64,000 bases of DNA from Patescibacteria group bacterium (lineage in GTDB: Bacteria; Patescibacteriota; UBA1384; DATEAH01): positions 27,770-91,769 of the forward strand of contig DATEAH010000006.1 in the NCBI GenBank assembly GCA_035288465.1, read 5' to 3'. Shown here piece after piece: positions 3,309-48,368 of the stretch (positions are counted from its first letter, which is position 1; each line of letters opens with the position of its first letter). Both the position numbers and the translations under genes were made by a program. The notes below the pieces were generated by a model. That model saw only the letters and a list, made by a program, of their open reading frames with translations, did not search any database and had not been told where the DNA came from.

Positions 3309-3438
3309 CAGTATTACCGCGCCCCGCCATGCAAAACAGTTTGCTGGCGTTGCGGGCGGGTTCATGCACGACTCATGATGCGTTTGGTCGTCGGGCTGCA
3401 CAACCTATTTTTATATAATTTATGGAGTGCAGGAGGGG
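3309..3438 (+). promoter_or_regulatory. Conserved structured leader element, copy A (candidate cis-regulatory RNA) upstream of lepB
   Basis: About 130 nt, sharing conserved blocks with 16266..16387: cagtattaccgcgcc(c)cgcca, ggcgttgcgggcgggttcat, gggctgcacaacc, an AT-rich spacer, then ggagtgcaggagggg immediately 5' of the start codon. A 6-bp inverted repeat ctgcac/gtgcag flanks the AT-rich spacer. Confidence 0.5.
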
Positions 3439-3439
3439 T

Positions 3440-4051
3440 ATGCGCAATGTGATTCGACCGCGTCTATCATTAGAAAATAAAAGTTCTAAAAGCAAAATTT
3501 TTTATAGGTTAGCGCGGTTTTTTGATTTAAGCAAATGGGTTATTTTAATCGCGATTGTGATTTATTTAGGACATTTGTTTGTGGTGAGCATTTTTGCGGT
3601 TTCTGGGGCGAGCATGGAGCCAAATTTTCACGACAAAGAATATTTAATCGTCAATAAAACCTTTCGAATTATTGACCGAATTCAACGCGGTGATGTGGCG
3701 ATTTTTAAATTCCCCGGCGATCCAAACGAGCTTTATATTAAAAGAATAATTGGTTTGCCGGGCGATACGATTGAAATCAAAGATAAAGCGGTTTGGGTTA
3801 ATGGTCGGAAAATGATTGAAATGTATTTAACTAAAGATATGGTCACGGATAAATTATCAAATCAGCAAAAATGGCATCTGGGTGCCAATGAATATTTTGT
3901 GATGGGTGACAATCGCGAAAATTCGAACGACTCGCGGGTTTGGGGCAGTTTACCCAAAGAAAATATTGTTGGCATTGCTAATTTCGTAATTTTGCCAGCA
4001 GCGATGGCTGGCAAGATTCCTATCCCTGATTATTATACGAGCTCAAAATAA
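3440..4051 (+). CDS. lepB: Signal peptidase I
   Basis: S26 motifs GASMEPNF and GDNRENSNDSRVWG, with an N-terminal TM. The track ORF starts at 3422, but the ATG at 3440 directly follows the GGAGGGG SD and is the more likely start. Confidence 0.85.
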   Translation: MRNVIRPRLSLENKSSKSKIFYRLARFFDLSKWVILIAIVIYLGHLFVVSIFAVSGASMEPNFHDKEYLIVNKTFRIIDRIQRGDVAIFKFPGDPNELYIKRIIGLPGDTIEIKDKAVWVNGRKMIEMYLTKDMVTDKLSNQQKWHLGANEYFVMGDNRENSNDSRVWGSLPKENIVGIANFVILPAAMAGKIPIPDYYTSSK

Positions 4052-4054
4052 AAT

Positions 4055-5671
4055 CTAAATTAATGGTTCTTTGAGGGCCATTAGGGTCTGGGTGATAATT
4101 TCAATCATTGGATAAAGCCTTTGCGTAAATTTTGGCAAAGTGCCAATTTCGTGATAAGACAAATACCATTCAGGTAAATTAAAGGGGATACGGCTAAAAT
4201 GATTAGCCCATTCTTTCTCGCAACCCAAAACCACCGCATATGGTAAATAATTAATGAATTCTTCCCGCTGTGCTTCGGCGGCGGTAGTTTGTTTGGGATA
4301 ACGAATTAAATAACGGCGAAAAGCCAGCCAGTCCGACAAGGCGCGTCGGCCTTTTTTAGTGCGCATCGGCATTTTGCTCGATAAAGCAATGATAAATAAA
4401 GCGGCAATTGCAGATCCCGTGAAAACCAAAACTATATAAGGCGGATTGACAAAAGCTGGAGAGATAAAAACTGCCAGCGCTGACAAGAAAAACAATAAAA
4501 TGCCAAAAATTTGATATCGATAGAGTATCGTTCTGGGGCCTTGGACAAAATAACCTAATTTCGCGATTTGATCATATGCTTTGGCATATATTTTAAAAAC
4601 TGCCTCGGAAAATAAGACTTTTTCGGGTTGCTCCTCAATACCGGCTAAACTTTCTTTAAAATGGCCTTTGAGCAATTCTTCAGATAAGGCGCGATCAAAT
4701 GGCTGGGCATCGTTAAATGATTTTTTTTCACCAATATTATAGCCATCGCCTTTTTCAGAAATAACCAAATAGCCACGATTAGCTAAGTCCAAAATTTGGC
4801 TGGCAATTTCCGCCGGCCCGATTTTTTGCCGAAATAAAACGCCCACTAAAAGCGGGCTCATTTGATTGGGAGGCCGATCTGAAACTCGATCGGAAATTTC
4901 CGGCCCACCAGAACGTCGGCGAATTAAAATCATCGCTAACAAACTTAAGATGATCACGCTCGGCAAAAAGATGGTCGCCGCCAGCCAAAAATCCAAACCA
5001 GCTAATCGGATTTCCGTCATTATCTTGACCATAGTCGCCATTTTGATTAAATTTTTATTAAATTTAACTTGGCAGGTAAAGCTACTATACGGCGAGAGAT
5101 TTTTGGCATAATAATACATAGCGCCATTTTTGACTCGCGCCCCACTCTTGCCTACTCCATGAATTGCATAATGAGATAAATAAACCTGGTTAGCTTTGAC
5201 ATTCTGCGGAAAAACGAGAAAGACCTCAAGGCTATCAATATTAATCCCGGGATTTTTAATCGGCTGAAAGCGCAGTTGATATTGGTTTTCGGTTGGCATA
5301 AATTCGGCGGCTTGTTCATATTCAATGCGCCAAGTATCACCCAAATTTGGGCTTGCTAAATCATAGATTAAAATCTGGTTATCAACTTTTCGAATTTTAT
5401 ATTGATCTTTGGAGATTTTCGTGTCTGAACGATAAATTTGTAAATTTGAAATATTTTTGGCATTAATTGCCCAGGCAAAATCAGCCACAAAGCGATTTGA
5501 AAAGACAAAATTTTCCTGCACTTTTAGCCGGCCATTGTTACCAAGAATGGCATTAATTTTAAGCTGGCTAAGACTAATTGGTACAAAATTTTCTTGAGCC
5601 TGAATAGATCTTGGCCAAAACAAGATCAAACTGGCAAAAATAATTAACAAGCACTTAGACCGGAATTTCAC
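4055..5671 (-). CDS. DUF2207-like membrane protein with signal peptide, large extracytoplasmic domain and three TM segments
   Basis: Topology read from the translation: signal peptide, a roughly 200 aa domain, a TM, a roughly 130 aa loop, a TM pair and a C-terminal domain. The call rests on architecture only. Confidence 0.35.
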   Translation of the reverse strand: MKFRSKCLLIIFASLILFWPRSIQAQENFVPISLSQLKINAILGNNGRLKVQENFVFSNRFVADFAWAINAKNISNLQIYRSDTKISKDQYKIRKVDNQILIYDLASPNLGDTWRIEYEQAAEFMPTENQYQLRFQPIKNPGINIDSLEVFLVFPQNVKANQVYLSHYAIHGVGKSGARVKNGAMYYYAKNLSPYSSFTCQVKFNKNLIKMATMVKIMTEIRLAGLDFWLAATIFLPSVIILSLLAMILIRRRSGGPEISDRVSDRPPNQMSPLLVGVLFRQKIGPAEIASQILDLANRGYLVISEKGDGYNIGEKKSFNDAQPFDRALSEELLKGHFKESLAGIEEQPEKVLFSEAVFKIYAKAYDQIAKLGYFVQGPRTILYRYQIFGILLFFLSALAVFISPAFVNPPYIVLVFTGSAIAALFIIALSSKMPMRTKKGRRALSDWLAFRRYLIRYPKQTTAAEAQREEFINYLPYAVVLGCEKEWANHFSRIPFNLPEWYLSYHEIGTLPKFTQRLYPMIEIITQTLMALKEPLI

Positions 5672-5822
5672 AGCCCCCCTTGTGAGCTCCGATGCGATAT
5701 CGGAGCGAATTATGAATCATGAATCGCCTCCTCGGCGATCCACCGAAGAGGTGGATTGAGAATAATAGAATAATTAGAAATTAGACTAATTAGGTTAATT
5801 AGTTAATTCTGTCCTTATTTTA

Positions 5823-9510: not shown

Positions 9511-9660
9511 TGGAAAATTTCTAATTTCTAATTATTCTAATTTCTAAACAAATCCCAATGTTTAAATTCCCAATAACTAAATTCAGATATTTGAAATTGA
9601 GTAATTGGGTATTCATTAGGTCAATTAGAGTAATTAGGTTAATTGAACTAATTATACCTA
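9511..9660. repeat. AT-rich palindromic MITE-like intergenic repeat, copy R2
   Basis: Contains ctaatttctaaacaaatcccaat plus a taattaggttaatt sub-repeat that is also present at 5781..5810. It is the reverse complement of the ttgtttagaaattag arm seen at 27021, 31738 and 49905. Confidence 0.6.
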
Positions 9661-9723: not shown

Positions 9724-11058
9724 CTATTTTTTCAAATGCTTTTTGAGTTCATCGCGGACGATTTGGCGTTCGTCCCAAGGGATTTTTTTATCACCCACCG
9801 CCATACACATTTCCGCCCCTTTGCCGGTAATGACCACTAAATCATCTTTTTCAGCCAGTTGAATCGCTTTTTTGATCGCTTTTTGGCGATTTAAAATTTT
9901 GTAATAATCTTGACCCAGCACCATTTTTTGATTTTTTTTGCCACGCGGCACACCGGCGGCGACTTGATCAATAATGTCTTTAGGCCTTTCGTGATAGGGA
10001 TCTTCGTCAGTGACAATCACAATATCAGTCCATTGCGAAGCTAAAGCACCCATAATTGGTCGTTTGGTTTTGTCGCGGTCGCCAGTGGCACCTAAAACTG
10101 AAATAATTTTCCCGGGCACCAAAGGCTTGACGGTTTGGTAAATTTTTTGCAAAGCATCTGGGGTGTGGGCATAATCAACAATCACCCCAAAATCCTGGCC
10201 TTCTTCTATTTTTTCCATTCGCCCTGGTACCTGCACTAATCTTTCCAAGCCTAATTTAATATATTTGAGGTCAATATTTTGAGACAAACCAACGCAAATA
10301 GCAGCTAAGGCATTTTCAATGTTGAATTTGCCAGGCAAAGCTAAAACAAATTCCGCTGAGCCAAAAGGTGTTTCGACCACAAATTGGCTGCCGGCAATAT
10401 CTGAAAAAGTGTGGCGAGCAATAATTTCATGGTCAGCTTTGGCGCGCGGTCCAATTCGATATGAATATTTTTTATCAGCCGGAAATTGCCAAAAATATTC
10501 AAAGGTTGGGTCTTCGGCGTTTATGACCGAGACTTTTTTCACGCCTGGTTTGCGTTCAAATTTCATTAATTTGGCAAATAATTTACCTTTGGAGTCGCGA
10601 TATTCAGTCATAGAGTGGTGATAATCTAAATGGTCGTGCGTTAAATTTGTAAAAGCCAAAATATCATAAGGAATGCCCCAAACCCGATTTTGATCAATGG
10701 CGTGAGAAGTGGTTTCCACAACCACATATTGGCAATCAGCTTTGAGGGCTTTGGCTAAAAAACTCTGCAGATGAAAAGCGGAAATCGTGGTCATCTTGGT
10801 TAAGTTTGGCCAAAGCTCATCGCCGATTCGAAAATTAACCGAACTTATGTGCGCGGTTTTATAACCAGCGCCCTGCAAAATTGAACTAATTAAATTAACA
10901 ACCGTAGTTTTGCCGTTGGTGCCGGTGACGCCGATAATGATCATTTTTTGAGCGGGAAAACCAAAACGGACACAGGCAATCCGGCTCTGCATAAGGTGAT
11001 AAAAATTTATAAAACCTGAGGGGAGAATTTTTTTCAAAAATTGTTTAATTTTATACAT
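9724..11058 (-). CDS. Mur ligase family protein, MurE-like
   Basis: P-loop IIGVTGTNGKTT, Mur ligase motifs TTSHAIDQNR and FTNLTHDHLDYH, and DYAHTPDAL, which is typical of MurE. It lacks the usual N-terminal domain. Confidence 0.6.
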   Translation of the reverse strand: MYKIKQFLKKILPSGFINFYHLMQSRIACVRFGFPAQKMIIIGVTGTNGKTTVVNLISSILQGAGYKTAHISSVNFRIGDELWPNLTKMTTISAFHLQSFLAKALKADCQYVVVETTSHAIDQNRVWGIPYDILAFTNLTHDHLDYHHSMTEYRDSKGKLFAKLMKFERKPGVKKVSVINAEDPTFEYFWQFPADKKYSYRIGPRAKADHEIIARHTFSDIAGSQFVVETPFGSAEFVLALPGKFNIENALAAICVGLSQNIDLKYIKLGLERLVQVPGRMEKIEEGQDFGVIVDYAHTPDALQKIYQTVKPLVPGKIISVLGATGDRDKTKRPIMGALASQWTDIVIVTDEDPYHERPKDIIDQVAAGVPRGKKNQKMVLGQDYYKILNRQKAIKKAIQLAEKDDLVVITGKGAEMCMAVGDKKIPWDERQIVRDELKKHLKK

Positions 11059-13978: not shown

Positions 13979-16180
13979 ATGAATAAAGAATTGTCTAAAC
14001 AATACGAGCCGAAAAAAGTTGAGCCTGAAATTTATCAATATTGGGAAAAAGGCAAATTTTTTGAAGCTAATATTGATACCGGCAAAGAACCATTCTGCAT
14101 GATGATTCCGCCTCCAAACGTGACCGGTGAATTGCATATGGGTCATGCTTTAAACAATACGATTATTGACAGCTTGATTCGCTGGCAAAGGATGAAAGGC
14201 AAAAACGCTCTCTATCAGCCAGGTACTGATCATGCCGGCATTGCCACTCAAAACAAAGTTGAGCAAAAATTAGCCAAAGAAGGCAAAACCCGCTTGGATC
14301 TTGGCCGAAAAAATTTTGAGAAAGAGGTTTGGAACTGGAAAAACCAATACGAAAAAAGGATTTTGGGCCAGCTAAAAACTTTGGGCTGTTCGTGTGATTG
14401 GCAACGCAACCGCTTTACGATGGATGCCGAATATACTGAAGCGGTCATGACCGCCTTTAAACATTATTATGATAAGGGTTGGATTTATCAAGGTACGCGC
14501 GTAGTTAACTGGTGCCCGCGTTGCGCAACTTCAATTTCCGATATTGAGGTCAAACACAAACCGCAAAAAACTCTCTTATATTATTTTAAATATGATTTAA
14601 AATTTCCGATTACCATCGCCACCACCAGGCCAGAAACAAAACTTGGCGACACTGGCGTGGCAGTGCATCCCAAGGACAAGAGATATAAAAAATTTATTGG
14701 CAAAACTTTTCAAATTGATTTTGCCGGCCAAAAACGCGAGATCAAAGTGGTCGCCGATTCTTCGATTAATCGCAAATTTGGCACCGGGGCAGTGGGCTTG
14801 ACGCCAGCGCATTCAATAATTGATGAAAAAATCGCGGACAAAAATCACTTGGAAAAAATCAAGATAATTGATGAAAAAATTAGAATGACTGAAGCTGCTG
14901 GCAAGGATTTTGTCGGTTTGCGGCCAAAAGCAGCTCGCGAAAAAGTTGTCGCCTGGTTGCGCGATCAAAAATTAATATCAAGGGAAGTTGAAATCGAGCA
15001 TAATTTATCACTTTGTGATCGCTGTTCAACTACGGTTGAACCTTTGCCGTCTTTGCAATGGTTTTTAAAAATGTCGCAATTGGCTAAACCCGCCATTGAA
15101 GCTGTAAAAACGGGGAAAATTAAATTTCACCCCGCATTTTGGAAAAAAGTGTATTTGGCTTGGATGGAAAATATTGAAGATTGGTGCATTTCCAGACAGC
15201 TTTGGTGGGGACACAGATTGCCGGTATGGCACAAACAGGAAGAAATCCGAAATCCGAAATCCGAAATCCTAAACAAATCCCAATTTCAAAATTCCAAAAG
15301 TTTAGAAATTAGAAATTCGGATTTAGACATTTATGTTGGCGATAATCCGCCTGAAGGTTATGAACAAGTTGAAGATGTTTTAGACACTTGGTTTTCATCA
15401 GCCTTGTGGCCGTTTGCGGCTCTGGGTTGGCCGCAACCATCGCCGGTTTTTCAATATTATTTTCCCACCCAAATTTTGTCAACCGCCCGTGATATTATTT
15501 TCTTATGGGTGGCGAGAATGATTTTTTCCAGCTTGGAGTTAACTGGCGAGATTCCCTTTCGCGATGTTTATATCCATCCGACAATTTTTAATATTGAAGG
15601 CAGGCGCATGTCTAAATCTTTAGGCACTGGTGTTGATCCTTTGGAATTAATTAAAAAATACGGTGCAGATGCGGTTAGATTTGGTTTGCTCGCACAAAAT
15701 ACTGGGGTTCAGGATTTAAAATTTTCCGAAGACACCATCGCGGCTGGTGCAAAATTTGCGAACAAAATTTGGAATGCGGTCAGATTCGTGCGCATGAATT
15801 TGGAAATTTCCGACACCAAACTCCAAAAAATGGACAAAGCCCCAAAAGCGATTACTGACCACGATAAGAAGTTTCTCAACAACTTGAATAATATCATCAA
15901 ATCAACTGATAATAATTTGACGAATTTCCGCTTTGGCCAGACTGCCCAAGAATTATATAACTTTTTCTGGCATACTTTTTGCGATCAATATTTGGAATAT
16001 TCCAAAGAGCAGATGAAAGACGAAAAGCTCAAAAAAAATACCCAAAAAATTTTATATTACACCATTTGCCAAAGTTTGAAATTAATGCATCCGATTATGC
16101 CATTTATTACCGAAGAAATTTGGCGTGAACTCGGTCAAAAAACGCCATTGATAATTTCTGAGTGGCCGAAAAGTCAGTAA
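13979..16180 (+). CDS. valS: Valyl-tRNA synthetase (short form lacking the C-terminal coiled coil) with an in-frame repeat-derived insertion
   Basis: PPPNVTGELHMGHA (HIGH), DWCISRQLWWGHRLP, DTWFSSALWPF and GRRMSKSLG (KMSKS) identify the enzyme. A roughly 30 aa insertion lies between the WCISRQ and DTWFSS blocks. Confidence 0.9.
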   Translation: MNKELSKQYEPKKVEPEIYQYWEKGKFFEANIDTGKEPFCMMIPPPNVTGELHMGHALNNTIIDSLIRWQRMKGKNALYQPGTDHAGIATQNKVEQKLAKEGKTRLDLGRKNFEKEVWNWKNQYEKRILGQLKTLGCSCDWQRNRFTMDAEYTEAVMTAFKHYYDKGWIYQGTRVVNWCPRCATSISDIEVKHKPQKTLLYYFKYDLKFPITIATTRPETKLGDTGVAVHPKDKRYKKFIGKTFQIDFAGQKREIKVVADSSINRKFGTGAVGLTPAHSIIDEKIADKNHLEKIKIIDEKIRMTEAAGKDFVGLRPKAAREKVVAWLRDQKLISREVEIEHNLSLCDRCSTTVEPLPSLQWFLKMSQLAKPAIEAVKTGKIKFHPAFWKKVYLAWMENIEDWCISRQLWWGHRLPVWHKQEEIRNPKSEILNKSQFQNSKSLEIRNSDLDIYVGDNPPEGYEQVEDVLDTWFSSALWPFAALGWPQPSPVFQYYFPTQILSTARDIIFLWVARMIFSSLELTGEIPFRDVYIHPTIFNIEGRRMSKSLGTGVDPLELIKKYGADAVRFGLLAQNTGVQDLKFSEDTIAAGAKFANKIWNAVRFVRMNLEISDTKLQKMDKAPKAITDHDKKFLNNLNNIIKSTDNNLTNFRFGQTAQELYNFFWHTFCDQYLEYSKEQMKDEKLKKNTQKILYYTICQSLKLMHPIMPFITEEIWRELGQKTPLIISEWPKSQ
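15241..15330. repeat. MITE-like palindromic repeat copy R3, inserted in-frame inside valS
   Basis: The DNA agaaatccgaaatccgaaatccgaaatcctaaacaaatcccaatttcaaaattccaaaagtttagaaattagaaattcggatttag matches the intergenic copies at 9537, 27021, 31660 and 49830. It includes the same ctaaacaaatcccaat core and has inverted-repeat ends. It encodes EEIRNPKSEILNKSQFQNSKSLEIRNSDLDI. Confidence 0.65.
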
Positions 16181-16265
16181 ACGGTTAACAATCAACAGTT
16201 AATAACTCTGTGGTCCGAAATAGAGATTGGGGATTATGCCCGCCAAGTCTTAGAACTCACCTTTT

Positions 16266-16387
16266 CAGTATTACCGCGCCCGCCATTACTACGCTCAGGC
16301 GTTGCGGGCGGGTTCATACACGGTTCGTGCTGCGAATATCAGCGGGTTGCACACCAATTATATTAATTTTCTGGAGTGCAGGAGGGG
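16266..16387 (+). promoter_or_regulatory. Conserved structured leader element, copy B, upstream of the TPR gene
   Basis: It shares the same conserved blocks as 3309..3438 at about 85-90% identity. Intervening variable segments could each form their own hairpins. It ends ggagtgcaggagggg. Confidence 0.5.
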
Positions 16388-17314
16388 ATTTTGAAGAAAA
16401 AAATTTTAATAATTTTAGGCATTATTCTAGTTCTCGTGGGAATTTTTTTCGCGACTAAACCATACCGAACTAGTTTAGCTGCAACATATCTTAGTTTGGG
16501 TGATAAATTAATGGAAAACCAAGAATATCCGGAAGCGAAGACCCAATATTTAAAAGCGCGCTTGCTTTTACCTGGTAATTTTGGGGTGACTTTTAAAGTG
16601 GCCGAAACATATGAAAAATTGGGAAATTATCAATTATCCTATTCCTATTATAATAAAGCTAGGAAAATCTTACCAAATGACCCGAAAACATATTTAGCAA
16701 TGGCAAATATCAATTGGCGAAATAATAATTTAGACAAAGCGGTCGAGATTTTAAATAAAGGACTTGACAAAATTTCTAACAACAACGATCGCCAACTTTT
16801 ACAAATTAACCTGGGTAAAATTTATTTAATTAAAAAAGATTCCGCCAAAGCGAAAACTGCTTTTTCTGATACTGGTTCTAATTATTGGCTAGGAATTTAT
16901 TTCGCCTATCTCGGTGATTACCAAAGCGCTAAAAATTATTTTAGAAAAGAAACAACTGATAACGCCAAACTTTTTAACCAAGCGACAGTAAAAATTATTA
17001 ATACCAAAAGCGAGCCAACCCAAAAAGCGATTTTGGCCCAGATGCTAAATCAAACTGGTGAAGCCAGACTTGCGCTTCCAATTCTTAAAGATTTGGTTCA
17101 AAAAAATCCCGAATATCGGGATGCCTGGATATTTTTAGGTTATTCGAATTTAGAATTAGGAAATTCCAGTGAAGCCCTTGCTGCGCTCGAAACTGCCCAA
17201 AAATTAGACCCGATATATCCCCTAACATATGAACTCTTGGCCAAGCTCTACCAAAATAAAGGTAATGAGGCAAAAGCCAAAGAATATTTAGACCGCGCTA
17301 ACGCTCTCAAATAA
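16376..17314 (+). CDS. TPR-repeat protein with N-terminal transmembrane anchor
   Basis: An N-terminal TM (ILIILGIILVLVGIFF) followed by multiple TPR-like 34-aa repeats. The likely true start is the TTG at 16391 after the SD. Confidence 0.65.
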   Translation: MQEGILKKKILIILGIILVLVGIFFATKPYRTSLAATYLSLGDKLMENQEYPEAKTQYLKARLLLPGNFGVTFKVAETYEKLGNYQLSYSYYNKARKILPNDPKTYLAMANINWRNNNLDKAVEILNKGLDKISNNNDRQLLQINLGKIYLIKKDSAKAKTAFSDTGSNYWLGIYFAYLGDYQSAKNYFRKETTDNAKLFNQATVKIINTKSEPTQKAILAQMLNQTGEARLALPILKDLVQKNPEYRDAWIFLGYSNLELGNSSEALAALETAQKLDPIYPLTYELLAKLYQNKGNEAKAKEYLDRANALK

Positions 17315-19154: not shown

Positions 19155-19286
19155 CTTTTTAATTCAAGATTTATATTCTAATTTGACATTTTTAGTCAAT
19201 TTTATGGTATATTATAAATAGTAAAGAATCAAATTTGCTTAGCCTCGCGACGAGGATTATTTTGAGGTTATATATAAAATTCCAAA

Positions 19287-19673: not shown

Positions 19674-19736
19674 ATTCGCACCTGAATATTGGACATTGAT
19701 TGGTGATTGAAATTTGATAATTGGAATTTATCCTAA

Positions 19737-20933: not shown

Positions 20934-20961
20934 ATTAATAATTTATTTAAATTAATATAAT

Positions 20962-29273: not shown

Positions 29274-29280
29274 TTTTTTG

Positions 29281-29345: not shown

Positions 29346-29349
29346 TACA

Positions 29350-30543: not shown

Positions 30544-30553
30544 AGGAGGAAGG

Positions 30554-31639: not shown

Positions 31640-31640
31640 A

Positions 31641-31772
31641 AAATTCTAAATCCTGAATCCGAGATCCTAAACAAATTCTAATTTTCCAAATTACAAATTT
31701 CAAACAAGTTTGAGATTTAAAACATTGGAATTTAAATATTGTTTAGAAATTAGTGCTTAGGATTTCGAATTT
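31641..31772. repeat. MITE-like palindromic repeat copy R7 (most complete)
   Basis: Left arm gagatcctaaacaaattctaattttcc and right arm attgtttagaaattagtgcttaggatttcgaattt. It is followed by a ccugcc-UUCG-gcggg tetraloop hairpin (31774-31788) just 5' of the AAGGAGGGG SD. Confidence 0.6.
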
Positions 31773-31803
31773 ATCCTGCCTTCGGCGGGACTAAGGAGGG
31801 GTT

Positions 31804-33759: not shown

Positions 33760-33766
33760 GGGCAAA

Positions 33767-36466
33767 ATGGCAGATGATGACCAAAATTTATTATCGACGC
33801 CAGGAGCTGATGATTCAGAAGAACCGGCGGGAGGGGAAACAAATCAAGAACCAGAACCGCAAATAGATTCAAACCGAGGTCCAGACGTGCGGGATAGATT
33901 GCAACAATGGGGAAAAAATCGAAAAGAAAAACAAGCAGCTAAAAAAGCCGCCAAAACTGTAGCTAAAACCGGTGAAAAAGCGGTTGAGGGTGCAGCAAAA
34001 AAGGGCGCTGCGACCACAGCCAAGGCTGGCGCTCGTGCGGCGGCACAAGCTGTGGGCACGGCGGTTTTGGATGCTCTTGGCGTGGCCACTTCTGAGGCTT
34101 GGGTGCCAATTTTAATTGGGATAATAATTCTGGTGGTTGGTTTTATTGTTTTAATAATTTTAATCATCGTTATTTTTTGGCTTTTGCGGGGCGGGGCCGG
34201 CCAATCCGCATATATGAGTGCGGGCGATCCAATTAATGGCCCAAATGCGGCAGTTTATGCAGATATGAAAAATTTAATTGATAAAGGCAAAATTGTCGCG
34301 CCCTCAGAATCCCCGGAACCCGATAAGACCGAGGTTCCTTCAGAAAAAGAATTTTTATTAGGGAAAAAACATCCCACGGTTGGCCATGTTGATGTCAGGC
34401 TCTTAAAATCCCTGGTTTATTTGGGCGAAAAACACGAACGTATTTACGTTCGTAATGTTTTATATCCTTATGTTTATATGCCCGTCAATACCATTGAGAC
34501 CAAAAATACCAAAGACAACACCTTTGAAAAATCAATTTCTGCCCATAAAGAGGGTAAAGCCGCAGATATTAGCCAAATTGACAAGGGTTGTAAGAAAAAC
34601 TTAGAGGTCTCATGGCAAGATGATCCGGTCCAAACTGAAACCGAGGATCGCGGTATCCAACGCGACGAGGCAATCAATATTTTAGAAGAATCAATGGGCT
34701 TGGCCCAAAATAGCCTTGAGGGTAAAAACTTTGAAGAGATTTTACAGAACACTGGCCAGGCTGAATTAGAAAGATATTTCAAGCTTGAACCGGGCAGTTT
34801 AGACGGCAAGGATTTAAACGAGGTGATTAGTAACTGGGGACAAAGAGAATTTAATGAAAAGTTGAATTTGCCTTACGAAGTTAACGGTGTAAATTTTGAT
34901 CAATATGTCATTGATCTGGCGCAAACCAAAATTGAGGAGGTTTTCGGCTTACCCAATGAAAGCTTGCGCGGTCAAAATTTACAAGAAATTGCCATTAATC
35001 TGGGACAGACTAAAATTGAAAAAGAACTCGGCTTACCGGCCGGCACCCTTACCAATAAAGACAGCTTAAAATTTTATGCCCAAAATAAATGGGGCGACCA
35101 AGTTGATGAAAATCTGCTTAAAATCGCTGCGGATTTAGACCTTGCTCAATTGGGTTTATCCGAGAGAATTTTAATTGATTTATTCCATAAAGCCGAAGCT
35201 GGACAGGATCTTTCTTTTGAATTAAAAAATATTGGTGGTGCGGTTTTGGCAAATTCTCTTGATTTGCCACAAGGTACTAATATTTTTACAAATTATATGA
35301 TTGCACCGGATCCTGGTGGTTTCTCAATTGATTATCAGCAAACCATTGTCAATCAATTTTGGCAAAGTGTCACCGATGCCGAAATAGGATCTGGACTACC
35401 AGAAGGAAGCATTAAAAATTTCCTAAACGCAATGGCAAAAGGCGAAAATCCCCAAGATTATTTTAGAAATATCGGCAGCGATATTATTGATAATAATATT
35501 GGCTGGAAGGCTCGAACTGCCTATCAGCTGGCGACGGGCGCGATTGGGGTGGAACAAGCCCTGGCCAATACTGATTATTCAATTTCTGATCTGTCAGCCC
35601 GATGGAATGTCTCCGAACAATCGGTGAGAAATTTTTTATCAGGTAATATTAGCGCCGCGATTAAAGAAGAAGGCCAGCTCAGGCTTTCCTCGACCTTTAA
35701 TCTTCCCTATGATTTGGCGGGTGATTTAATTAATGGCAGAATAAATTATCAAACCGCCTTAAGTCTTGCCGGTATCAACTTAAATGATTTAGCCAAACAG
35801 TGGGATGTGCCAATTAATTCCTTAACAAGTTTTATGTCTGGGGATATAAAGGGTGCGGCAACTTCTTATGGAATTCAGATTATGAAGGAGAATTTTAAAA
35901 TGTCTGATGCGCAGATTAATGCCGCCCTTACCCTAATTCAAACCGGCGACATTAAGGGCGCTGCTGAACAATTTGCTAAAAACTATGCTCTAAACGCGAT
36001 TGGCGTTGCCTTCGGTTTGCCGCCTGGCACGATTCAGGCGGTGTTAATGGTGATTGAAAATCCAGAACTACTCTTAAATCCTTTAAAACAATTAGGCTCG
36101 ATGGCAAAAGAAGCGATTAGCGGCATTAGCAAAACCATCAAAAGTATTTTAAGTTTTGGCGGAATTTTCGGCCGAAAAAAATGCAGCACGCGCGACAAGG
36201 TGAGAGCAAAAATTCATCAAGTTACTAAAGAATTATTAGAAATGCCTGCGGCGAATATTCCAAAACTTGGTTTGCCTGACCGGTCCGAAATGAGGGTGAC
36301 GCAACTAATTGTCTGGAGCTATGAACGCGACGTGATGCCACTTGAAATTGGGACCGAGCAACCGACCTTAGATTATGTGTATGGCACCGGTCGGCAACCA
36401 AATTATGGACTTTTTGCGACAAAGGGTAATAATTATTTACTTGATCATATTCACGTTGGTTACTAA
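33767..36466 (+). CDS. Large membrane-anchored protein with LAS/M15-like peptidase motif and about eight internal ~35-aa GQ/GLP repeats
   Basis: An acidic then AKK-rich cytoplasmic N-terminus and one TM. HPTVGHVD...SISAHKEGKAADIS fits the M15 (VanY-like) H...SxHxxGxAxD pattern. Repeats such as NLQEIAINLGQTKIEKELGLPAGTLT recur. Confidence 0.4.
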   Translation: MADDDQNLLSTPGADDSEEPAGGETNQEPEPQIDSNRGPDVRDRLQQWGKNRKEKQAAKKAAKTVAKTGEKAVEGAAKKGAATTAKAGARAAAQAVGTAVLDALGVATSEAWVPILIGIIILVVGFIVLIILIIVIFWLLRGGAGQSAYMSAGDPINGPNAAVYADMKNLIDKGKIVAPSESPEPDKTEVPSEKEFLLGKKHPTVGHVDVRLLKSLVYLGEKHERIYVRNVLYPYVYMPVNTIETKNTKDNTFEKSISAHKEGKAADISQIDKGCKKNLEVSWQDDPVQTETEDRGIQRDEAINILEESMGLAQNSLEGKNFEEILQNTGQAELERYFKLEPGSLDGKDLNEVISNWGQREFNEKLNLPYEVNGVNFDQYVIDLAQTKIEEVFGLPNESLRGQNLQEIAINLGQTKIEKELGLPAGTLTNKDSLKFYAQNKWGDQVDENLLKIAADLDLAQLGLSERILIDLFHKAEAGQDLSFELKNIGGAVLANSLDLPQGTNIFTNYMIAPDPGGFSIDYQQTIVNQFWQSVTDAEIGSGLPEGSIKNFLNAMAKGENPQDYFRNIGSDIIDNNIGWKARTAYQLATGAIGVEQALANTDYSISDLSARWNVSEQSVRNFLSGNISAAIKEEGQLRLSSTFNLPYDLAGDLINGRINYQTALSLAGINLNDLAKQWDVPINSLTSFMSGDIKGAATSYGIQIMKENFKMSDAQINAALTLIQTGDIKGAAEQFAKNYALNAIGVAFGLPPGTIQAVLMVIENPELLLNPLKQLGSMAKEAISGISKTIKSILSFGGIFGRKKCSTRDKVRAKIHQVTKELLEMPAANIPKLGLPDRSEMRVTQLIVWSYERDVMPLEIGTEQPTLDYVYGTGRQPNYGLFATKGNNYLLDHIHVGY

Positions 36467-43213: not shown

Positions 43214-43351
43214 TTTTGTGCGGGACAAATCCTCTCTCCACCGCCAATTGGTGATATAATAAAAATAGTAAACAATTAATATTTATGCGTGTAATTTATT
43301 TATTGTTGGTCGTTATCTGCTAACCGTTAATTGATAAGCCCGCCTAAGTTT

Positions 43352-43450
43352 AGTGTTCGCCTTTTGGGAACTATTCGTTCACGGCTTACGCCGCACTTTA
43401 GCGACGGGCTGCACAACCTATTTGATAATAAATAATAGAGTGCAGGAGGG
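43352..43450 (+). promoter_or_regulatory. Conserved leader element, copy C (shorter and degenerate at the 5' side), upstream of pilB
   Basis: gggctgcacaacctattt, an AT-rich spacer, then agagtgcaggagggg immediately before the GTG start. The upstream gttcacgg...gccgcac block resembles the gttcatgcacg blocks of copies A and B. Confidence 0.4.
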
Positions 43451-45172
43451 GTGTTGGACTCAAAAAATCAAAACAATCAGTTGCCATATGATTCGGCTTC
43501 ATCGTCCCCAAAACCTGCACCCAAGGCTGGGCTTGAGCGGGTTTTTTCTGAATATATTAAAGATCAACAAGAAACCGCCACCGAAAATCGAGCTAAGAGT
43601 TTCGGCCTTTCCTATATTAACCTAATTGGTTATCCGATAAGCAATCAAACTATGCAATTAATTCCCGAAGAAATTGCCCAAAAATATCGAGTCGTCGCCT
43701 TTATGAAAGCTGAGGGGCAATTACGAGTCGCTTGCCAAGATCCAGAAAACGAACAGATGAAAATTGAATTAGCCCAAGTTGCGAAAAATTTAGACTTACA
43801 AATAATTTATACCTTGACTTCAAAAAATAGCCTAGATTATGCTTTAAAAAATTACCAATTTATTCCCAAACTCACGACGAGTGAAATTAAAGTTTCGCAG
43901 GCAGAGGAAAAAGATTTTGCCAAAGAGATTAAAAACCTTTCTGATTTGAAGGAAAAAATTAGCCAGGTGCCGATAACTAAGATTTTTGAAATTATATTAA
44001 CTGGAGCGATTAAATCTAAAGCTTCTGATGTTCATGTTGAGCCTGGGCAAAATGGCATGAAAATGCGTTACCGAATTGATGGAGTTTTGCAGGACGTGGT
44101 GAGTTTGCCTACCGAAGTTTATCGGGCTTTGTTATCTCGAGTAAAATATTTAGCCAAAATGAAGCTGGACATTAATAATAAACCGCAAAATGGCCGTTTT
44201 TCAATTACAGCCCTAGACGTGCCCATTGATTTAAGGGTTTCAACCTTGCCCACGATTTATGGCGAAAATGTGGTGATGAGACTTTTGGAGCACGGGAAAG
44301 GATTTTTGAGTTTGGAACAGCTTGATTTTTCCCCTGAAATTAAAAAGATGGTGGCTGAGGCGATTAAAAAACCATCAGGGATGATATTGAACACTGGGCC
44401 AACCGGTTCTGGCAAAACCACGACGCTTTATGCAATTTTAGAGACCTTGAATAAGCCCGGAGTAAAAATAATTACTTTGGAAGATCCGGTTGAATATCGT
44501 TTGCCGGGAATTAATCAGACTCAAGTGAATGTGGAGTTGGGCTTGGATTTTGCCAGCGGTTTGAAATCAGCTTTAAGGCAAGATCCAGACGTGCTGATGG
44601 TGGGTGAAATTCGCGATTTAGAAACCGCCGAAATCGCTTTGCAAGCGGCAATGACTGGACATTTGGTGCTATCAACCTTGCATACCAATAACGCGCCAAC
44701 CGCGATGCCTCGCTTGATTGATTTGGGCATTAAACCCTTTTTATTGCCCGGATCTGTGGATTTGGTAATGGCGCAGCGCTTGGTGAGAAAAATTTGTAAA
44801 AAATGCAAAGAAGAATATAAACCCACAGCTGAAGTAATGGAAAAGATTAAAAAAGCGCTCACAAGGATTAATCCGTCTCCTGTTAAGGCTGGAGCCGAGA
44901 CAGGTACAAAAATCCCCTCCAAACTTTTCAGGGGGAGGGGATGTCCTGTTTGCAATCAGACTGGTTATATGGGTAGAACGCCGATTGCCGAAGGCTTAAA
45001 ACCTAATGCAAAAATTGAAAAATTAGTGATTAATCGGGCGACCATATCAGAACTATATCGAACCGCAGTTGAATTAGGAATGGTTACTATGGAACAAGAC
45101 GGATTGCGAAAAGCTTTGGCGGGCGTAACTACAATTGAAGAAGTCTGGCGAGTTACCGCGAGTGAGACATAA
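43451..45172 (+). CDS. pilB: Type IV pilus assembly ATPase PilB (GspE family)
   Basis: Walker A GPTGSGKTTTLYA, GEIRDLETAEIALQAAMTGHLVLSTLHTNNA, and a tetracysteine motif CKKCKEE...CPVCNQTG. Confidence 0.9.
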   Translation: MLDSKNQNNQLPYDSASSSPKPAPKAGLERVFSEYIKDQQETATENRAKSFGLSYINLIGYPISNQTMQLIPEEIAQKYRVVAFMKAEGQLRVACQDPENEQMKIELAQVAKNLDLQIIYTLTSKNSLDYALKNYQFIPKLTTSEIKVSQAEEKDFAKEIKNLSDLKEKISQVPITKIFEIILTGAIKSKASDVHVEPGQNGMKMRYRIDGVLQDVVSLPTEVYRALLSRVKYLAKMKLDINNKPQNGRFSITALDVPIDLRVSTLPTIYGENVVMRLLEHGKGFLSLEQLDFSPEIKKMVAEAIKKPSGMILNTGPTGSGKTTTLYAILETLNKPGVKIITLEDPVEYRLPGINQTQVNVELGLDFASGLKSALRQDPDVLMVGEIRDLETAEIALQAAMTGHLVLSTLHTNNAPTAMPRLIDLGIKPFLLPGSVDLVMAQRLVRKICKKCKEEYKPTAEVMEKIKKALTRINPSPVKAGAETGTKIPSKLFRGRGCPVCNQTGYMGRTPIAEGLKPNAKIEKLVINRATISELYRTAVELGMVTMEQDGLRKALAGVTTIEEVWRVTASET

Positions 45173-45176: not shown

Positions 45177-45563
45177 TTAAGTCAAAAACCTTGAAAAAAC
45201 AAAGGTGATAATTAAATAAGATGCAAAAATTACCACCAAACCGATAATCGCATTTAGTATGCCAGTGCGAGCTTCGGTAGCCGTCTCAGCATTGCCCCCA
45301 GCCGTGATGTACTTGTAACCAGCTAAAATCAAATAGATTAATGCAACTACACCAGCCGCTATCAGAAGGAGACGAATAGCATTACTAACTATACTTTGAA
45401 GGCTTCCTCTGAAAAATTCTCCCCGTGGAACCCAATTTTTCCATGCTTCAGAGGCACCGGAAGTAGGAACTGGAACAATGTCGGCTGAGGCGCTTGCCGG
45501 AGTCAACAACAGCAAAGAGGTGGCGAAAAGATACTGAATGATTTTTGAAAAAAACTTTTTCAT
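45177..45563 (-). CDS. VirB2/TrbC-type (T4SS) pilin-like small membrane protein, paralog a
   Basis: A signal peptide, then two hydrophobic helices flanking the conserved loop AGYKYITAGGNAETATEARTGILNAIIGLVV. Confidence 0.45.
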   Translation of the reverse strand: MKKFFSKIIQYLFATSLLLLTPASASADIVPVPTSGASEAWKNWVPRGEFFRGSLQSIVSNAIRLLLIAAGVVALIYLILAGYKYITAGGNAETATEARTGILNAIIGLVVIFASYLIITFVFSRFLT

Positions 45564-45649
45564 TTTCCTCTCCTTAATTTAAATAATCAGTTATTAATTA
45601 TATTGTAAGATGATTATTTTTTTTGTCAATTTTTAGTCTTAATTAAAAT

Positions 45650-46006
45650 TTACGGCGCCTGTGGCGGTAAACCACCAATAATCGAACCCCAAGCAAAATT
45701 AATAATTGCCAGCGCTGCAAAACAAATCACCAAACCAATTACTGCCCATAAAATGGTGCTTTTCGCCTGAGCGATTGCATCTGGATTGCCGGCAGAAATG
45801 ATATATTTATATCCGCCGATAATAATATAAATAATCGCAATTGCACCAGCGAGGGTTAAAGCAACATTAATGACATTGCCAATCAAATAAACCACATCCC
45901 ATAAATCATATTCAGTACCACTACCGCCAGCATGGGGAGCTTGAAGAATTGGAAACATGGCAATTTTTGTAGATTGAATTGTCGCAAAAGTTATTAAACT
46001 ATTCAT
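45650..46006 (-). CDS. T4SS pilin-like protein, paralog b
   Basis: The same GGYKYIISAGNPDAIAQAKSTILWAVIGLVI motif architecture. Confidence 0.45.
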   Translation of the reverse strand: MNSLITFATIQSTKIAMFPILQAPHAGGSGTEYDLWDVVYLIGNVINVALTLAGAIAIIYIIIGGYKYIISAGNPDAIAQAKSTILWAVIGLVICFAALAIINFAWGSIIGGLPPQAP

Positions 46007-46008
46007 AA

Positions 46009-46602
46009 TTATTTCAAAATAAAATTAACAATTAAATATGACGAAAAAGCAATAATTATTCCGATGACCGCGCCTAAAATGGCATTTTTACCTTTATTGG
46101 CAATTTCGGGATTTCCAGCCGAAGTGATGTATAAATAACCACCATAAATTAAGACCACGGTTGCGACTACGCCAATTAAAACCAAGAGAATTGTAATAAT
46201 ATTCTGTACCACATCCTCCCATCTTCCTGGAGCATAATTGGGAATATTAATTGGCTCTAAGGGCTCTGAGTCTGATTGGGCTTGGGGAACCGTACCTCCA
46301 ACGTTTGGATTTTGTTTGAGCCAATCGTTGAAAACATCTTCAAAATACCAACCAGTTGGCAATTCAGCAGTGCCGCTTGAGCGGTAAAAAACTTTTTTAC
46401 CATCGTACATTCCATATGGAATGGTAGTTTTGTCTGGCTGAGGTTGTTTCCATTGATCGGTTACTTTGGGGTCATTGGCATCGGTTGAAACCGGCACAGG
46501 TTTTATTGCTATATCAGCTAAGGCTGGTGTCGAAATTACAAAAAAGATTCCTAAAATCAAAACCGCCCAAATTGTAAAAATATATTTTTTAAATACCATC
46601 AT
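46009..46602 (-). CDS. T4SS pilin-like protein, paralog c, with an extra roughly 110 aa N-terminal extracytoplasmic region
   Basis: GGYLYITSAGNPEIANKGKNAILGAVIGIIIAF. It has an N-terminal TM. Confidence 0.45.
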   Translation of the reverse strand: MMVFKKYIFTIWAVLILGIFFVISTPALADIAIKPVPVSTDANDPKVTDQWKQPQPDKTTIPYGMYDGKKVFYRSSGTAELPTGWYFEDVFNDWLKQNPNVGGTVPQAQSDSEPLEPINIPNYAPGRWEDVVQNIITILLVLIGVVATVVLIYGGYLYITSAGNPEIANKGKNAILGAVIGIIIAFSSYLIVNFILK

Positions 46603-46609
46603 ATTTTCC

Positions 46610-46915
46610 TTATTGTACCAAGTTCCCGCTTATTGAGGAAAGAATTAAATAACCTAAGCCCAAAACCAACAAACTGATAATTGTCCCGAAAATAATATCT
46701 TTGGCTTCGGTTAAGGCGTCTGGATTACCCTGACTACTCATATATTTATAGCCAGCATAAATTAACATTAAAATTGCCAGTCCGACCGCTAAATAACTCA
46801 CAAATTCATAAATACAGCCAATATATACACTTAAAACCACATCCATGCCTTGTTCGCAAAGACCACCTCGGGTTGGAATGGTGACGCCAATTACAGCTGG
46901 CAAAAAAGTATACAT
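46610..46915 (-). CDS. T4SS pilin-like protein, paralog d
   Basis: AGYKYMSSQGNPDALTEAKDIIFGTIISLLV. Confidence 0.45.
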   Translation of the reverse strand: MYTFLPAVIGVTIPTRGGLCEQGMDVVLSVYIGCIYEFVSYLAVGLAILMLIYAGYKYMSSQGNPDALTEAKDIIFGTIISLLVLGLGYLILSSISGNLVQ

Positions 46916-46939
46916 AATTTTCCTTTGTTGAAAAATTTA

Positions 46940-48346
46940 TTATGGAGCGTCAGTTTCTTTATTGGCCCACAGGGTTTTGATATTTTCCACGGCCGCATCA
47001 ATGGCTTTTTGTGCAGGTTGTGATTTAGCAGTAACCGCGGTAATCATACTATTAAAAATTTGATCAATTTTATTTGGCGCCTGCCCCTTGTACCAGCTCT
47101 GGGCAGTAGAAATTTGGTTTTTAAACACTGAAATATCAACATCGCCAAGATACTCTGAAACCAAATCAAGCCTCGAGGTTGGCCGGCCAGTAATTTCTAG
47201 ATATTTATATTGAATCATATTATCTTTGTCGGTAGCAAATTTTAGAAAATCCCAAGCCACAACCGAATTTTGAGAATTTTTTGAAACCACATTTGGCCAA
47301 TAACTGGCATAATTTATTCTATTATCCGATCCTTTGACTTGTGGGATTGGTGCAAAATCATATTCTAAATCTGGGGCAGAATTTTTGATTTGTTTAATTT
47401 GATAGGAATAATTGATCATCATCGCGGTTTTATTAGCGATAAAAGCTTCAGTGGAAGTAGCTTGGGAAGCATTCCAAGAATATGTTTCTTTAGCGGGTTT
47501 GGCAAAACTGGTGTAAAAATCTAAAGCCGAGGTGCCAGGATAATAGATTTGGTCATTGCTTTTTTCAATTGATAAATTAAGGGTTGGGGTGTTTTTATCT
47601 TCAGAAACCATTTTGGTACCATTTTGGAGCATTAATAACGATAAAATATCTTGTGAAGCCTCAACATTATTTGAGGTACCTAAGGCAATGCCGGACTGGG
47701 CAATATTGGTACCATTTTTTGCGGTTAGTTTTTTAATTTGACCAATTAAATCTGTCCAATTTTCAGCCACCTTATCAATTCTTAATTTGTCGATTTGGTC
47801 TGAGGAAAGGTCTGCTTGTCGGCCCACAGAATAATTATAATTACCAATTAGGGTTTTATTGTAATATAAACCCAGAGTGTCGACATAAAAAGGAATCCCC
47901 CAAATTCGATTATCAGCAATTAAGTCTTGAGCTGCAACTGGCGCAAAGATTTTTTTGTAATCATCTGTAGACATATAATCTTCGGGCATGGGACTAAGTT
48001 TGTCTTCGTGTTTGGTCAGCCAATCATTTTTAATTTGGAATAAATCTGGACCTGAGCCGTTGGCAATAGCATTAATTAATTCGGTTTCATACCCTGAGGG
48101 ATTTTTTTTGACTAAATTAATAGTGGCATTGTCATGAGCTTGTTTATATGCCTGAACAGTTGGCGTGAGAGCAGCTTCGTCGTCGTATAAATACCACCAG
48201 GTTAGCGTGACTGGGCCTGAAGGGTAGGCGGTTTTTGAGGTGTTGGTAGGTTGGTCTGAGCCCTTTTTAAAAACAACCGCGACCACAATTAAAATCACGA
48301 TTAATAAAAAAATAATTATGCCGCCGATAATGAGTCCTTTTTTCAA
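46940..48346 (-). CDS. ABC transporter extracellular solute-binding protein (family 1, sugar-type), membrane-anchored
   Basis: TTG start, an N-terminal TM and a roughly 440 aa SBP-like domain. It is preceded on the minus strand by aaattatggagtgcaggaggggat (minimal copy D of the conserved leader 3' box, 48347-48368). Confidence 0.6.
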   Translation of the reverse strand: MKKGLIIGGIIIFLLIVILIVVAVVFKKGSDQPTNTSKTAYPSGPVTLTWWYLYDDEAALTPTVQAYKQAHDNATINLVKKNPSGYETELINAIANGSGPDLFQIKNDWLTKHEDKLSPMPEDYMSTDDYKKIFAPVAAQDLIADNRIWGIPFYVDTLGLYYNKTLIGNYNYSVGRQADLSSDQIDKLRIDKVAENWTDLIGQIKKLTAKNGTNIAQSGIALGTSNNVEASQDILSLLMLQNGTKMVSEDKNTPTLNLSIEKSNDQIYYPGTSALDFYTSFAKPAKETYSWNASQATSTEAFIANKTAMMINYSYQIKQIKNSAPDLEYDFAPIPQVKGSDNRINYASYWPNVVSKNSQNSVVAWDFLKFATDKDNMIQYKYLEITGRPTSRLDLVSEYLGDVDISVFKNQISTAQSWYKGQAPNKIDQIFNSMITAVTAKSQPAQKAIDAAVENIKTLWANKETDAP

Positions 48347-48368
48347 ATCCCCTCCTGCACTCCATAAT

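Follow-up and report, generated by a model that had tools for sequence, protein, structure and literature searches.

The stretch of DNA considered here (the window) comprises 64,000 nucleotides (nt) from a member of the Patescibacteria (GenBank assembly GCA_035288465.1, contig DATEAH010000006.1, positions 27,770 to 91,769); with a 17-kb extension on the same contig (L054 and L055), 81 kb of the genome are covered. At four places in the window, related sequences stand directly before a gene: lepB, which encodes a signal peptidase; a gene for a membrane protein with TPR domains; pilB, which encodes a pilus ATPase; and a gene for a solute-binding protein (SBP) that is followed by pilin-like genes. 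A preliminary description of this DNA had reported these sites and genes, and both hold, the sequences by direct reading of each site and the genes by their Pfam domains (Table 1). Three of the copies are long, about 120-165 nt, rich in hairpins and with a conserved box at the 3′ end; the fourth, before the SBP gene on the minus strand, consists of the 3′ box alone, as had been described.

A search of the window for the 15-nt box GGAGTGCAGGAGGGG with up to two mismatches gave four matches, against 0.01 expected, and none of 100 shuffles reached that number. Across the four copies, 59 of the 60 box bases are identical. Every copy is oriented with its downstream gene and provides that gene's Shine-Dalgarno (SD) sequence, 1-3 nt before the start codon. 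The box is strongly purine-rich (GGAGUGCAGGAGGGG, with purines at 13 of 15 positions), and this composition, together with an AGGAGG lying 1-3 nt 5′ of the start codon, agrees with what defines polypurine or SD-type stabilisers of mRNA. It had been considered that the conserved sequence might be a promoter or SD consensus found before most genes. Among the roughly 54 gene starts for which the 40 nt upstream were listed, SD sequences of the GGAGG(G) type are indeed frequent; the box itself, however, is carried by only the four genes named above and is thus not a generic consensus.

Alignment of the long copies (repeat family D19) confirms them as copies and moves their starts some 30 nt farther 5′ than first given, to about 3275, 16232 and 43332 instead of 3309, 16266 and 43352. 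The additional 5′ arm of about 30 nt pairs with the 3′ side, so that the greater part of each copy forms one long rod, P1-P6. The consensus fold of the three copies (RNAalifold) consists, in order, of this rod of 72-116 nt, a second hairpin (hairpin 2; UGCAC/GUGCA with an AU-rich loop), and the box with its SD. The same fold is the minimum free energy (MFE) structure of each copy with 20 nt of coding sequence added, and of the rods alone. P1 has the form GCCCGNC/GNCGGGC and is followed by P2-P5, and P6 is a GC-rich distal hairpin that is missing from the pilB copy. That copy had been reported as shorter, and it is, yet its rod, hairpin 2 and box are all present. The variable segments had been thought to form hairpins of their own; instead, most of this variable sequence pairs from one side of the element to the other, as the arms of the rod. 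An inverted repeat, ctgcac/gtgcag, around an AT-rich spacer was said to be present in every copy; this is true of the three long copies, whereas the SBP copy has the right half-site only. Model R1, a covariance model of the long copies, finds in the window those three copies (129-180 bits), a weak match at the SBP remnant (18.9 bits over 48344-48438), and nothing else.

Table 1. Positions of the element, its parts, the associated genes and promoters, and the simple hairpin-SD modules in the window (bits are scores of the covariance model R1)
Feature	Position	Strand	Remarks
Full copy 1	3275-3438	+	Between rpsT (S20, 2861-3262) and lepB; 179.9 bits
Copy 1, rod P1-P6	3281-3396	+	P1 GCCCGAC 3281-3287 with GTCGGGC 3390-3396; RNAalifold, pair counts, MFE
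Copy 1, conserved blocks of rod	3303-3309; 3309-3324; 3346-3365	+	CCTTTCC; CAGTATTACCGCGCCC; GGCGTTGCGGGCGGGTTCAT
Copy 1, hairpin 2	3397-3432	+	TGCAC 3397-3401 with GTGCA 3428-3432; AT-rich loop with TATAAT 3414-3419
Copy 1, box	3424-3438	+	GGAGTGCAGGAGGGG; purine-rich, with SD AGGAGG; 1 nt 5′ of lepB ATG
lepB	3440-4051	+	Pfam Peptidase_S26, signal peptidase; ATG at 3440
Full copy 2	16232-16387	+	Between class-I aminoacyl-tRNA synthetase gene (13979-16180) and TPR gene; 175.2 bits
Copy 2, rod	16238-16347	+	P1 GCCCGCC 16238-16244 with GCGGGT 16342-16347
Copy 2, hairpin 2	16348-16380	+	
Copy 2, box	16373-16387	+	15-mer match, upstream of TPR gene
TPR gene	16391-17314	+	Pfam; N-terminal membrane segment; start TTG at 16391
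Full copy 3	43332-43451	+	Short form lacking P6; pilB leader; 129.3 bits
Copy 3, rod	43338-43409	+	P1 GCCCGCC 43338-43344 with GACGGGC 43403-43409
Copy 3, hairpin 2	43410-43445	+	
Copy 3, box	43437-43451	+	AGAGTGCAGGAGGGG; 1 mismatch; upstream of pilB
pilB	43454-45172	+	Pfam T2SSE/MshEN, PilB-type ATPase; start TTG at 43454
Extended -10 promoter	43252-43260	+	TGATATAAT; 3′ of tRNA gene, about 75 nt 5′ of copy 3
Copy 4, 3′ box only	48347-48368	-	aaattatGGAGTGCAGGAGGGG; fills 22-nt gap between NTP_transferase gene (48369-49250) and SBP gene
Copy 4, box	48349-48363	-	15-mer match, upstream of SBP gene
SBP gene	46940-48346	-	Pfam SBP_bac_1, solute-binding protein; start TTG at 48346; four T4SS-pilin-like genes follow in operon
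Promoter TTGACA-17-TATAAT	49275-49303	-	Perfect sigma-70 consensus; operon NTP_transferase-SBP-4x T4SS_pilin
Simple module before DUF2207 gene	5686-5706	-	ATTCATAATTC, hairpin GCTCCGAT/ATCGGAGC, TCACAAGGGGGG, GTG
Simple hairpin and SD	27057-27074	+	CAAGCCC/GGGCTTG, AAGGAG; before TraG/VirB4-like ATPase gene (27085)
Simple hairpin and SD	31774-31790	+	TCCTGCC/GGCGGGA, AAGGAGGGG; before PEGA-domain surface protein gene (31804)

Several comparisons among the three long copies support the fold. Paired cells amount to 93.1%, against 26-40% in slid controls, and ten pairs are changed on both sides, against 0-2 in those controls; neither value was reached in any of 500 shuffles. In the P2-P4 helix, 6 of 13 pairs are compensated. 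The lepB and TPR copies are unevenly conserved, agreeing at 22 of 24 and 17 of 20 positions in the central blocks but at only 6 of 13 and 10 of 16 in the stem arms. In a duplex test, every 5′ arm has its most stable partner in the 3′ arm of the same copy (-20.4, -17.0 and -22.7 kcal/mol; non-cognate arms give -11.9 to -19.6), with the exception that the pilB 5′ arm and the TPR 3′ arm (-19.6) surpass the TPR cognate pair; with the variable part alone, two of the three copies clearly prefer their own arm. The main stem of hairpin 2 (helix 4) is invariant, and in the small inner helix 5 a single pair shows a double-sided change. Compensatory covariation of the kind that had been called for is therefore present as ten double-sided changes, but between paralogous copies in one genome, and the searches found no homologue of the elaborated element in another organism.

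The surroundings of two copies bear on whether the element is transcribed. An extended -10 promoter (TGnTATAAT) is conserved before pilB in three relatives (L056, L057 and L058), four genomes with this one, and it lies upstream of copy 3, which would place the element inside a pilB 5′ untranslated region of about 190 nt. At the SBP gene, the operon promoter is upstream and the box falls in the 22-nt gap after the NTP_transferase stop codon, so that copy 4 should be transcribed as an intercistronic sequence. We infer that the element is transcribed and acts as RNA. The -10-like sequence that had been pointed out in the AT-rich spacer of hairpin 2 is there, as hexamers read from the sequence that have neither a TG nor a -35 partner, but no -35/-10 pair with 16-18-nt spacing backs them in any copy according to sigma-70 scans. 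A terminator scan gave no terminator-like site and no U-tract at any of the elements, P1 being followed by UGCACAACC. A repeated context of the extended -10 type, TG(A/G)TAT(A/C)(A/T)TA(T/A)AAA(T/G)AGTAAA(G/C)A (D17), occurs at 2715-2742, 19205-19232 and 43252-43279, upstream of rpsT, the gene at 19287 and pilB, respectively, and may be the typical strong promoter of the organism.

Searches for the element elsewhere point to a single species. An Rfam scan of the whole window at gathering thresholds returned two tRNAs only, and a scan at E <= 10 around each long copy returned noise of 10-15 bits against thresholds of 38-80 bits, none of the 4,227 families of Rfam 15 being matched; the initial failure to recognise a riboswitch class is thus upheld by covariance models. 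The pattern TGCACA-N-GAGTGCAGGAGGGG has 22 matches in genome contigs, all in unrelated taxa, against about 17 that we estimate by chance. A similar pattern has 18 matches in metagenome contigs, of which only one (L041) is real and is the same lepB copy; the estimated chance number is about 12-17 across both collections. Two pattern scans of viral contigs gave chance matches only, and blastn against phages gave no match. R1 finds no further copy in the 17-kb extension of the contig, which leaves three long copies and one remnant in 81 kb, each in the orientation of the gene that follows it, and none of nine loci scanned in relatives yields a full copy. Across the genome, metagenome and viral scans and the nine relative loci, the element is confined to one species; it does not share with riboswitch-type aptamers their conservation across lineages with phylogenetic covariation. 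A candidate variant locus in another metagenome (P0246; L060, ENA ERZ28563641 scaffold_199722, 2 kb) was rejected, since what it shares with the window is 140 nt of TPR coding sequence without the leader. Its positions 421-560 are nearly identical to the 5′ coding sequence of the TPR gene (about 16404-16547 of the window) and sit in unrelated sequence, with an IS200/IS605 Y1_Tnp transposase gene (735-1142) after them; the arrangement reflects either a chimeric assembly or the capture of a fragment.

The nearest relatives are distant (55-67% protein identity; at most 61% for LepB, 67% for PilB and 53% for the TPR protein), and the identical clonal sequence is present in many metagenome assemblies. 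Gene order is conserved as S20-lepB-DUF2207-holA-polA, as synthetase-TPR-SpoIID, and as tRNA-pilB facing pilins-SBP-NTP_transferase. Before pilB and the SBP gene, the relatives have a simpler module: an AT-rich leader, often with heptamer repeats, a GC hairpin of 6-9 bp, UCA(A/C)AA, AGGAGGG, 3-4 nt, and UUG; in one case (L205) the hairpin is 21 nt from the SD. The hairpins differ between genomes with pairing kept, for pilB (GCCCCGCAC/GTGCGGGGC versus CCCCGCC/GGCGGGG), for SBP (GCCCCGAT/ATCGGGGC versus GCCCGCCG/CGGCGGGC versus CCCACC/GGTGGG) and for DUF2207 (GCTCCGAT/ATCGGAGC here versus CCCCCGAT/ATCGGGGG in L035). Because the sequence varies and the pairing is preserved, the comparison argues for a nucleic-acid structure and not for a DNA word bound by protein. 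Upstream of the simple modules, promoter scans did not rise above background. A literature search for structured RNAs or hairpin-SD modules in Patescibacteria gave nothing relevant.

The simple module and the long element have much in common. They occupy the same place before pilB and SBP, have a P1 of the type GCCCGCC/GGCGGGC, and continue with the SD AGGAGGG, 3-4 nt and TTG; R1 aligns its own P1 and SD onto the relatives' modules with E = 0.005-0.17. The simple module, however, is only 17-32 nt long and is without P2-P6, hairpin 2 and the GGAGTGC extension. P1 looks like the relatives' simple hairpin, enlarged, and the long element is probably a species-specific enlargement of the simple stem-loop found in relatives at some of the same spots. 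We read the enlargement as having happened in one lineage, through a rod inserted in the hairpin loop and a second hairpin placed between P1 and the SD. The SBP copy here keeps the 3′ 22 nt and is without the hairpin that the relatives keep, which we read as a loss.

Two kinds of repeat were observed in the vicinity of such modules. Arrays of direct heptamer repeats lie in AT-rich leaders just 5′ of hairpin-SD modules or start codons, and the heptamer differs between genomes: (AATTTCT), (GAAATCC) and (AATTCAA) here (9516-9547, 15242-15273 and 25654-25684), (TTCATAA) in L056 (about 14320-14390, minus strand) and L057 (about 9880-9932, minus strand, and 5180-5240, plus strand), and (TTACGAT) in L205 (1-28). 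The genome also holds a second dispersed intergenic repeat family, AT-rich and about 40-90 nt long with the core TTGTTTAGAAATTAGGATTTAGA, in both orientations (families D1, D3, D6 and I1-I11), at 9534-9573, 26971-27062, 28884-28923, 29258-29349, 31638-31780 and 49822-49940. Its copies are often directly 5′ of simple hairpin-SD modules, and L058 has a similar sequence ahead of its pilB and SBP hairpins. One copy, with (GAAATCC)x4.6, lies at 15240-15318, in frame inside the synthetase open reading frame (ORF; 13979-16180), where it is translated as ...KQEEIRNPKSEILNKSQFQNSKSLEIRNS... between conserved motifs. Such an in-frame insertion is reminiscent of the Rickettsia palindromic elements (RPE).

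The observations taken together are best accommodated if the element is a transcribed, cis-acting 5′ leader that affects the mRNA stability or translation of envelope genes, a reading to which we assign a probability of about 0.5. It corresponds to the lineage-specific cis-regulatory RNA that had been among the original suggestions, and co-orientation, abutment on the start codon, the transcription argued above and the covarying stems favour it; the support is nevertheless partial, since the covariation is paralogous only, no homologue was found in other organisms, the opposite strand folds equally well, and there is no sign of ligand sensing.

In this scenario, the four sites would be paralogous copies of a leader placed directly before the ribosome-binding sites of lepB, the TPR gene, pilB and the SBP-pilin operon. 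The ancestral kind may have been the module of the clade, an AT-rich leader and a short GC stem-loop with a strong GGAGG(G) SD a few nt (once about 21 nt) later. The stem-loop P1 (GCCCGNC/GNCGGGC) could then have been extended into the rod of 72-116 nt, whose arms covary between copies, the second hairpin UGCAC/GUGCA would have been added, and the SD would have become part of the invariant purine-rich 15-nt box. Action would most likely be post-transcriptional: the stable structure and the ribosome-binding box may shield the 5′ part of the mRNA from 5′-to-3′ decay, possibly after cleavage in the AU-rich leader, and the same structure may also set the rate of translation initiation. The invariance of the box and the conservation of the internal-loop blocks hint at a trans-acting factor shared by the genes of an envelope regulon, which is pure inference.

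There are precedents for a stabiliser of this kind in Bacillus. The aprE leader, with a stem-loop and ribosome binding, the cryIIIA STAB-SD, the SP82 polypurine stabiliser and the blocking of RNase J1 by ribosomes on hbs are established cases (references 106, 109, 179 and 180 of PMC3997798; PMC5737220). Like these Firmicutes stabilisers, the element combines a stable 5′-leader hairpin with a strong purine-rich ribosome-binding sequence, and the organism encodes RNase J: the gene is on the same contig, 17 kb away (L054, 15748-17475), and its product has the Lactamase_B, RNase_J_b_CASP, RMMBL and RNase_J_C domains of such a 5′-to-3′ exonuclease. A PNPase gene is also on this contig. Unlike the stabilisers, the element has a far longer rod (72-116 nt) and blocks that are repeated nearly verbatim across several genes. 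The resemblance is to a possible mode of working, as a stabiliser or in translation, and not one of family membership. In the presence of paralogous copies before related genes, loop blocks with covarying stems and a 3′ SD, the element also resembles riboswitch, T-box and ribosomal-protein leaders; it differs from them in having no Rfam match, in its confinement to one species and in its unbranched rod, and a ligand or protein is only hypothetical. In sum, it is a lineage-specific structured 5′ leader that works most like the hairpin-SD stabilisers and is organised like a multi-copy leader family, with membership of any named family unproven.

A number of observations weigh against the leader reading. 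The long copies are only three and come from one clonal population, so that their covariation is paralogous and not phylogenetic, and with one single-nucleotide difference in 1,180 nt across 12 metagenome contigs (at 3439) there is no micro-covariation to use. The consensus fold was derived from the same three sequences whose pairs were then counted, and the main stem of hairpin 2 never varies and so has almost no support from covariation. Taken singly, the copies have unremarkable MFE z-scores (-1.05, -0.84 and +0.23). There is no strand asymmetry: the reverse complement folds better by 2-5 kcal/mol, G-U and C-A cells are balanced (7 versus 5), and a palindrome acting as DNA or single-stranded DNA would look the same. 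The nearness of the hairpins to the mRNA 5′ end is an assumption. Finally, the S20-lepB spacer of the relatives is 57-137 nt long with no hairpin and no element, and the synthetase-TPR spacer of one relative (L059) is 35 nt long, versus 210 nt here, and is also without it; the element has therefore spread between loci. What the data show is a selected palindromic structure; they do not tell the acting strand, or whether the structure acts at the RNA or the DNA level.

It is conceivable, though in our judgement unlikely, that the element is a dispersed DNA repeat, a palindrome resembling miniature inverted-repeat transposable elements (MITEs), REPINs or RPEs with an outward-facing SD, which is maintained at the level of DNA or single-stranded DNA and for which any regulation is incidental. 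REP, BIME and REPIN sequences, MITEs such as Correia and ERIC, and the RPEs are all palindromic dispersed repeats, and the element is like them an imperfect palindrome of about 100 nt at several intergenic sites that is missing from the orthologous sites of relatives. Measured against the relatives' lepB and TPR spacers it resembles an insertion of 120-175 nt, the rod folds equally well on either strand, similarity among the copies is mosaic (the lepB copy is like TPR in the centre and like pilB in the 3′ part), and the genome holds the other, AT-rich repeat family with one copy in frame inside a gene. Within the 81 kb covered, however, the element departs from such repeats in the strict co-orientation of all four copies with the box fixed in position as an SD, in a very low copy number (three long copies), and in the patchy conservation with compensated stems, which is unlike neutral repeat decay. 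Apart from P1, the sequence shows neither terminal inverted repeats nor a target-site duplication; the palindrome is limited to the inner rod, the outer ends (GATAAAGCCC... and ...GGAGGGG) do not form an inverted repeat, and no direct repeat is seen on the flanks. Gene annotation of the window and of the contig extension revealed no transposase. At pilB, moreover, the element stands where a hairpin already existed, which it replaces, and not at a new site. A DNA-level role of another sort, a shared promoter and operator, had also been proposed, and we find it hard to credit. Its -10 would lie in the spacer, CTGCAC/GTGCAG would be bound by a dimeric regulator of an envelope or pilus regulon, and the rod would be upstream regulatory DNA. 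The -10-like hexamers (TATAAT before lepB, GATAAT before pilB and TATATT before the TPR gene), the invariant inverted repeat of 5-6 bp that flanks the spacer and the functionally coherent gene set would suit it; but the sigma-70 scans find no -35/-10 pair in any spacer, the distance from hexamer to box varies from 5 to 9 nt, and about 29 bp separate the centres of the half-sites. The SBP copy has the right half-site alone, 22 nt past a stop codon in an operon with its own consensus promoter, pilB has an upstream promoter conserved in four genomes, and the simple modules vary their hairpin sequence while keeping the pairing, as is typical of RNA structure.

Other readings take the element as RNA. 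In a riboswitch-like sensor, the conserved internal loops of the rod would bind a small molecule or signal, and the RNA would alternate between the rod with its SD free and a fold whose SD is masked by pairing of GGAGGGG with CCUUU(C/U). The conserved blocks do lie in internal loops flanked by covarying stems, several copies precede functionally related genes, and in forced folds the two forms are nearly isoenergetic in two copies (-53.9 versus -53.7 and -45.9 versus -45.8 kcal/mol). This possibility is nonetheless about as poor as the operator, given that no Rfam family matches even at E <= 10, that conservation ends with one species, and that the rod is unbranched and without a multi-helix junction; the pilB copy has no P6 and lacks half of the conserved blocks, the SD-masked fold is less stable in it by 3.5 kcal/mol, and the anti-SD pairing has no support from covariation. 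A related and bolder proposal, which we consider doubtful, is that the element belongs to a new class of regulatory RNA that was copied onto secretion and pilus leaders and binds a dedicated protein or small molecule through the internal-loop blocks and the box. If true, it would reveal a post-transcriptional regulon for the cell-surface machinery of an episymbiont of the Candidate Phyla Radiation (CPR), and a leader cassette that spreads between genes. An attenuator, or a terminator without U-tract ('I-shaped') that tunes read-through from the upstream gene or leader into the envelope gene, is the reading in which we place least trust, although an attenuator was also among the original suggestions. 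Stable GC-rich hairpins in intergenic spacers and in a long 5′ untranslated region are compatible with it, as is the fact that lepB and the TPR gene follow co-directional genes and that scans found no convincing promoter of their own; yet neither the rod nor any of the simple hairpins leads into a T-run, the scan for terminators is negative at every element, and no alternative antiterminator pairing is evident. The hairpins are also mostly a few nt from the downstream SD and away from the upstream stop codon, although this is partly by design, the scan having required a gap of at most 9 nt.

Some narrower candidates were tried and rejected. The core sites of integron attC are RYYYAAC (R′′) and GTTRRRY (R′), in a cassette array with an integrase. 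As in attC, the structure is kept while central sequence and length vary, and GCCCGAC/GTCGGGC of the lepB copy matches RYYYAAC/GTTRRRY at 6 of 7 positions; the equivalents of R′ (GTCGGGC, AGCGGGT and GACGGGC), however, are without the essential GTT, the neighbours are housekeeping genes with no cassette array, and no integrase is among the genes annotated here. The box could open an upstream ORF (ATG GAG TGC...) in just two of the four copies, with differing frames relative to the gene. A sigma-54 promoter, considered because of pilB, was dismissed by reading the sequence, there being no GG-N10-GC after CTGCAC. GTGCAG, which we take to be the BsgI restriction site, occurs 22 times in the window against about 14 that we estimate from composition, which is neither avoidance nor meaningful enrichment. 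A palindrome upstream of two copies, TAACNGTTA, was considered as an operator and has one match against 0.69 expected.

Other features of the neighbourhood were also observed. Downstream of the SBP gene lie four tandem TrbC/VirB2-like T4SS_pilin genes (45177-46915, minus strand), convergent with pilB. Another cluster (19287-36466, plus strand) encodes a TraG/VirB4-like ATPase and an SLT/M23 hydrolase, and the relative L059 (11482-14325) adds PrgI and TraC-like genes. Together, the pilin genes and the cluster look like a conjugation-type or type IV secretion-like apparatus that is conserved in these Patescibacteria. A restriction-modification pair (101-1596, minus strand), consisting of an N6_N4 methyltransferase and a BsaWI-family endonuclease, is not at the corresponding place in two relatives (L034 and L035).

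To our knowledge, almost nothing is known of gene regulation in Patescibacteria and the CPR, organisms that have tiny genomes and very few regulators and that attach to their hosts by pili and surface proteins. The element would be of local interest only if it were an inert repeat. A leader common to a signal peptidase, a pilus ATPase, a TPR envelope protein and an SBP-pilin operon, on the other hand, would be a testable handle on how the envelope is coordinated. The comparison with relatives exposes in addition a broader design of the clade, apparently undescribed, in which an AT-rich leader is joined to a covarying GC hairpin and a strong SD. If the rod is functional, the element would show how a simple stabilising hairpin grows into a larger RNA domain and spreads to new genes.

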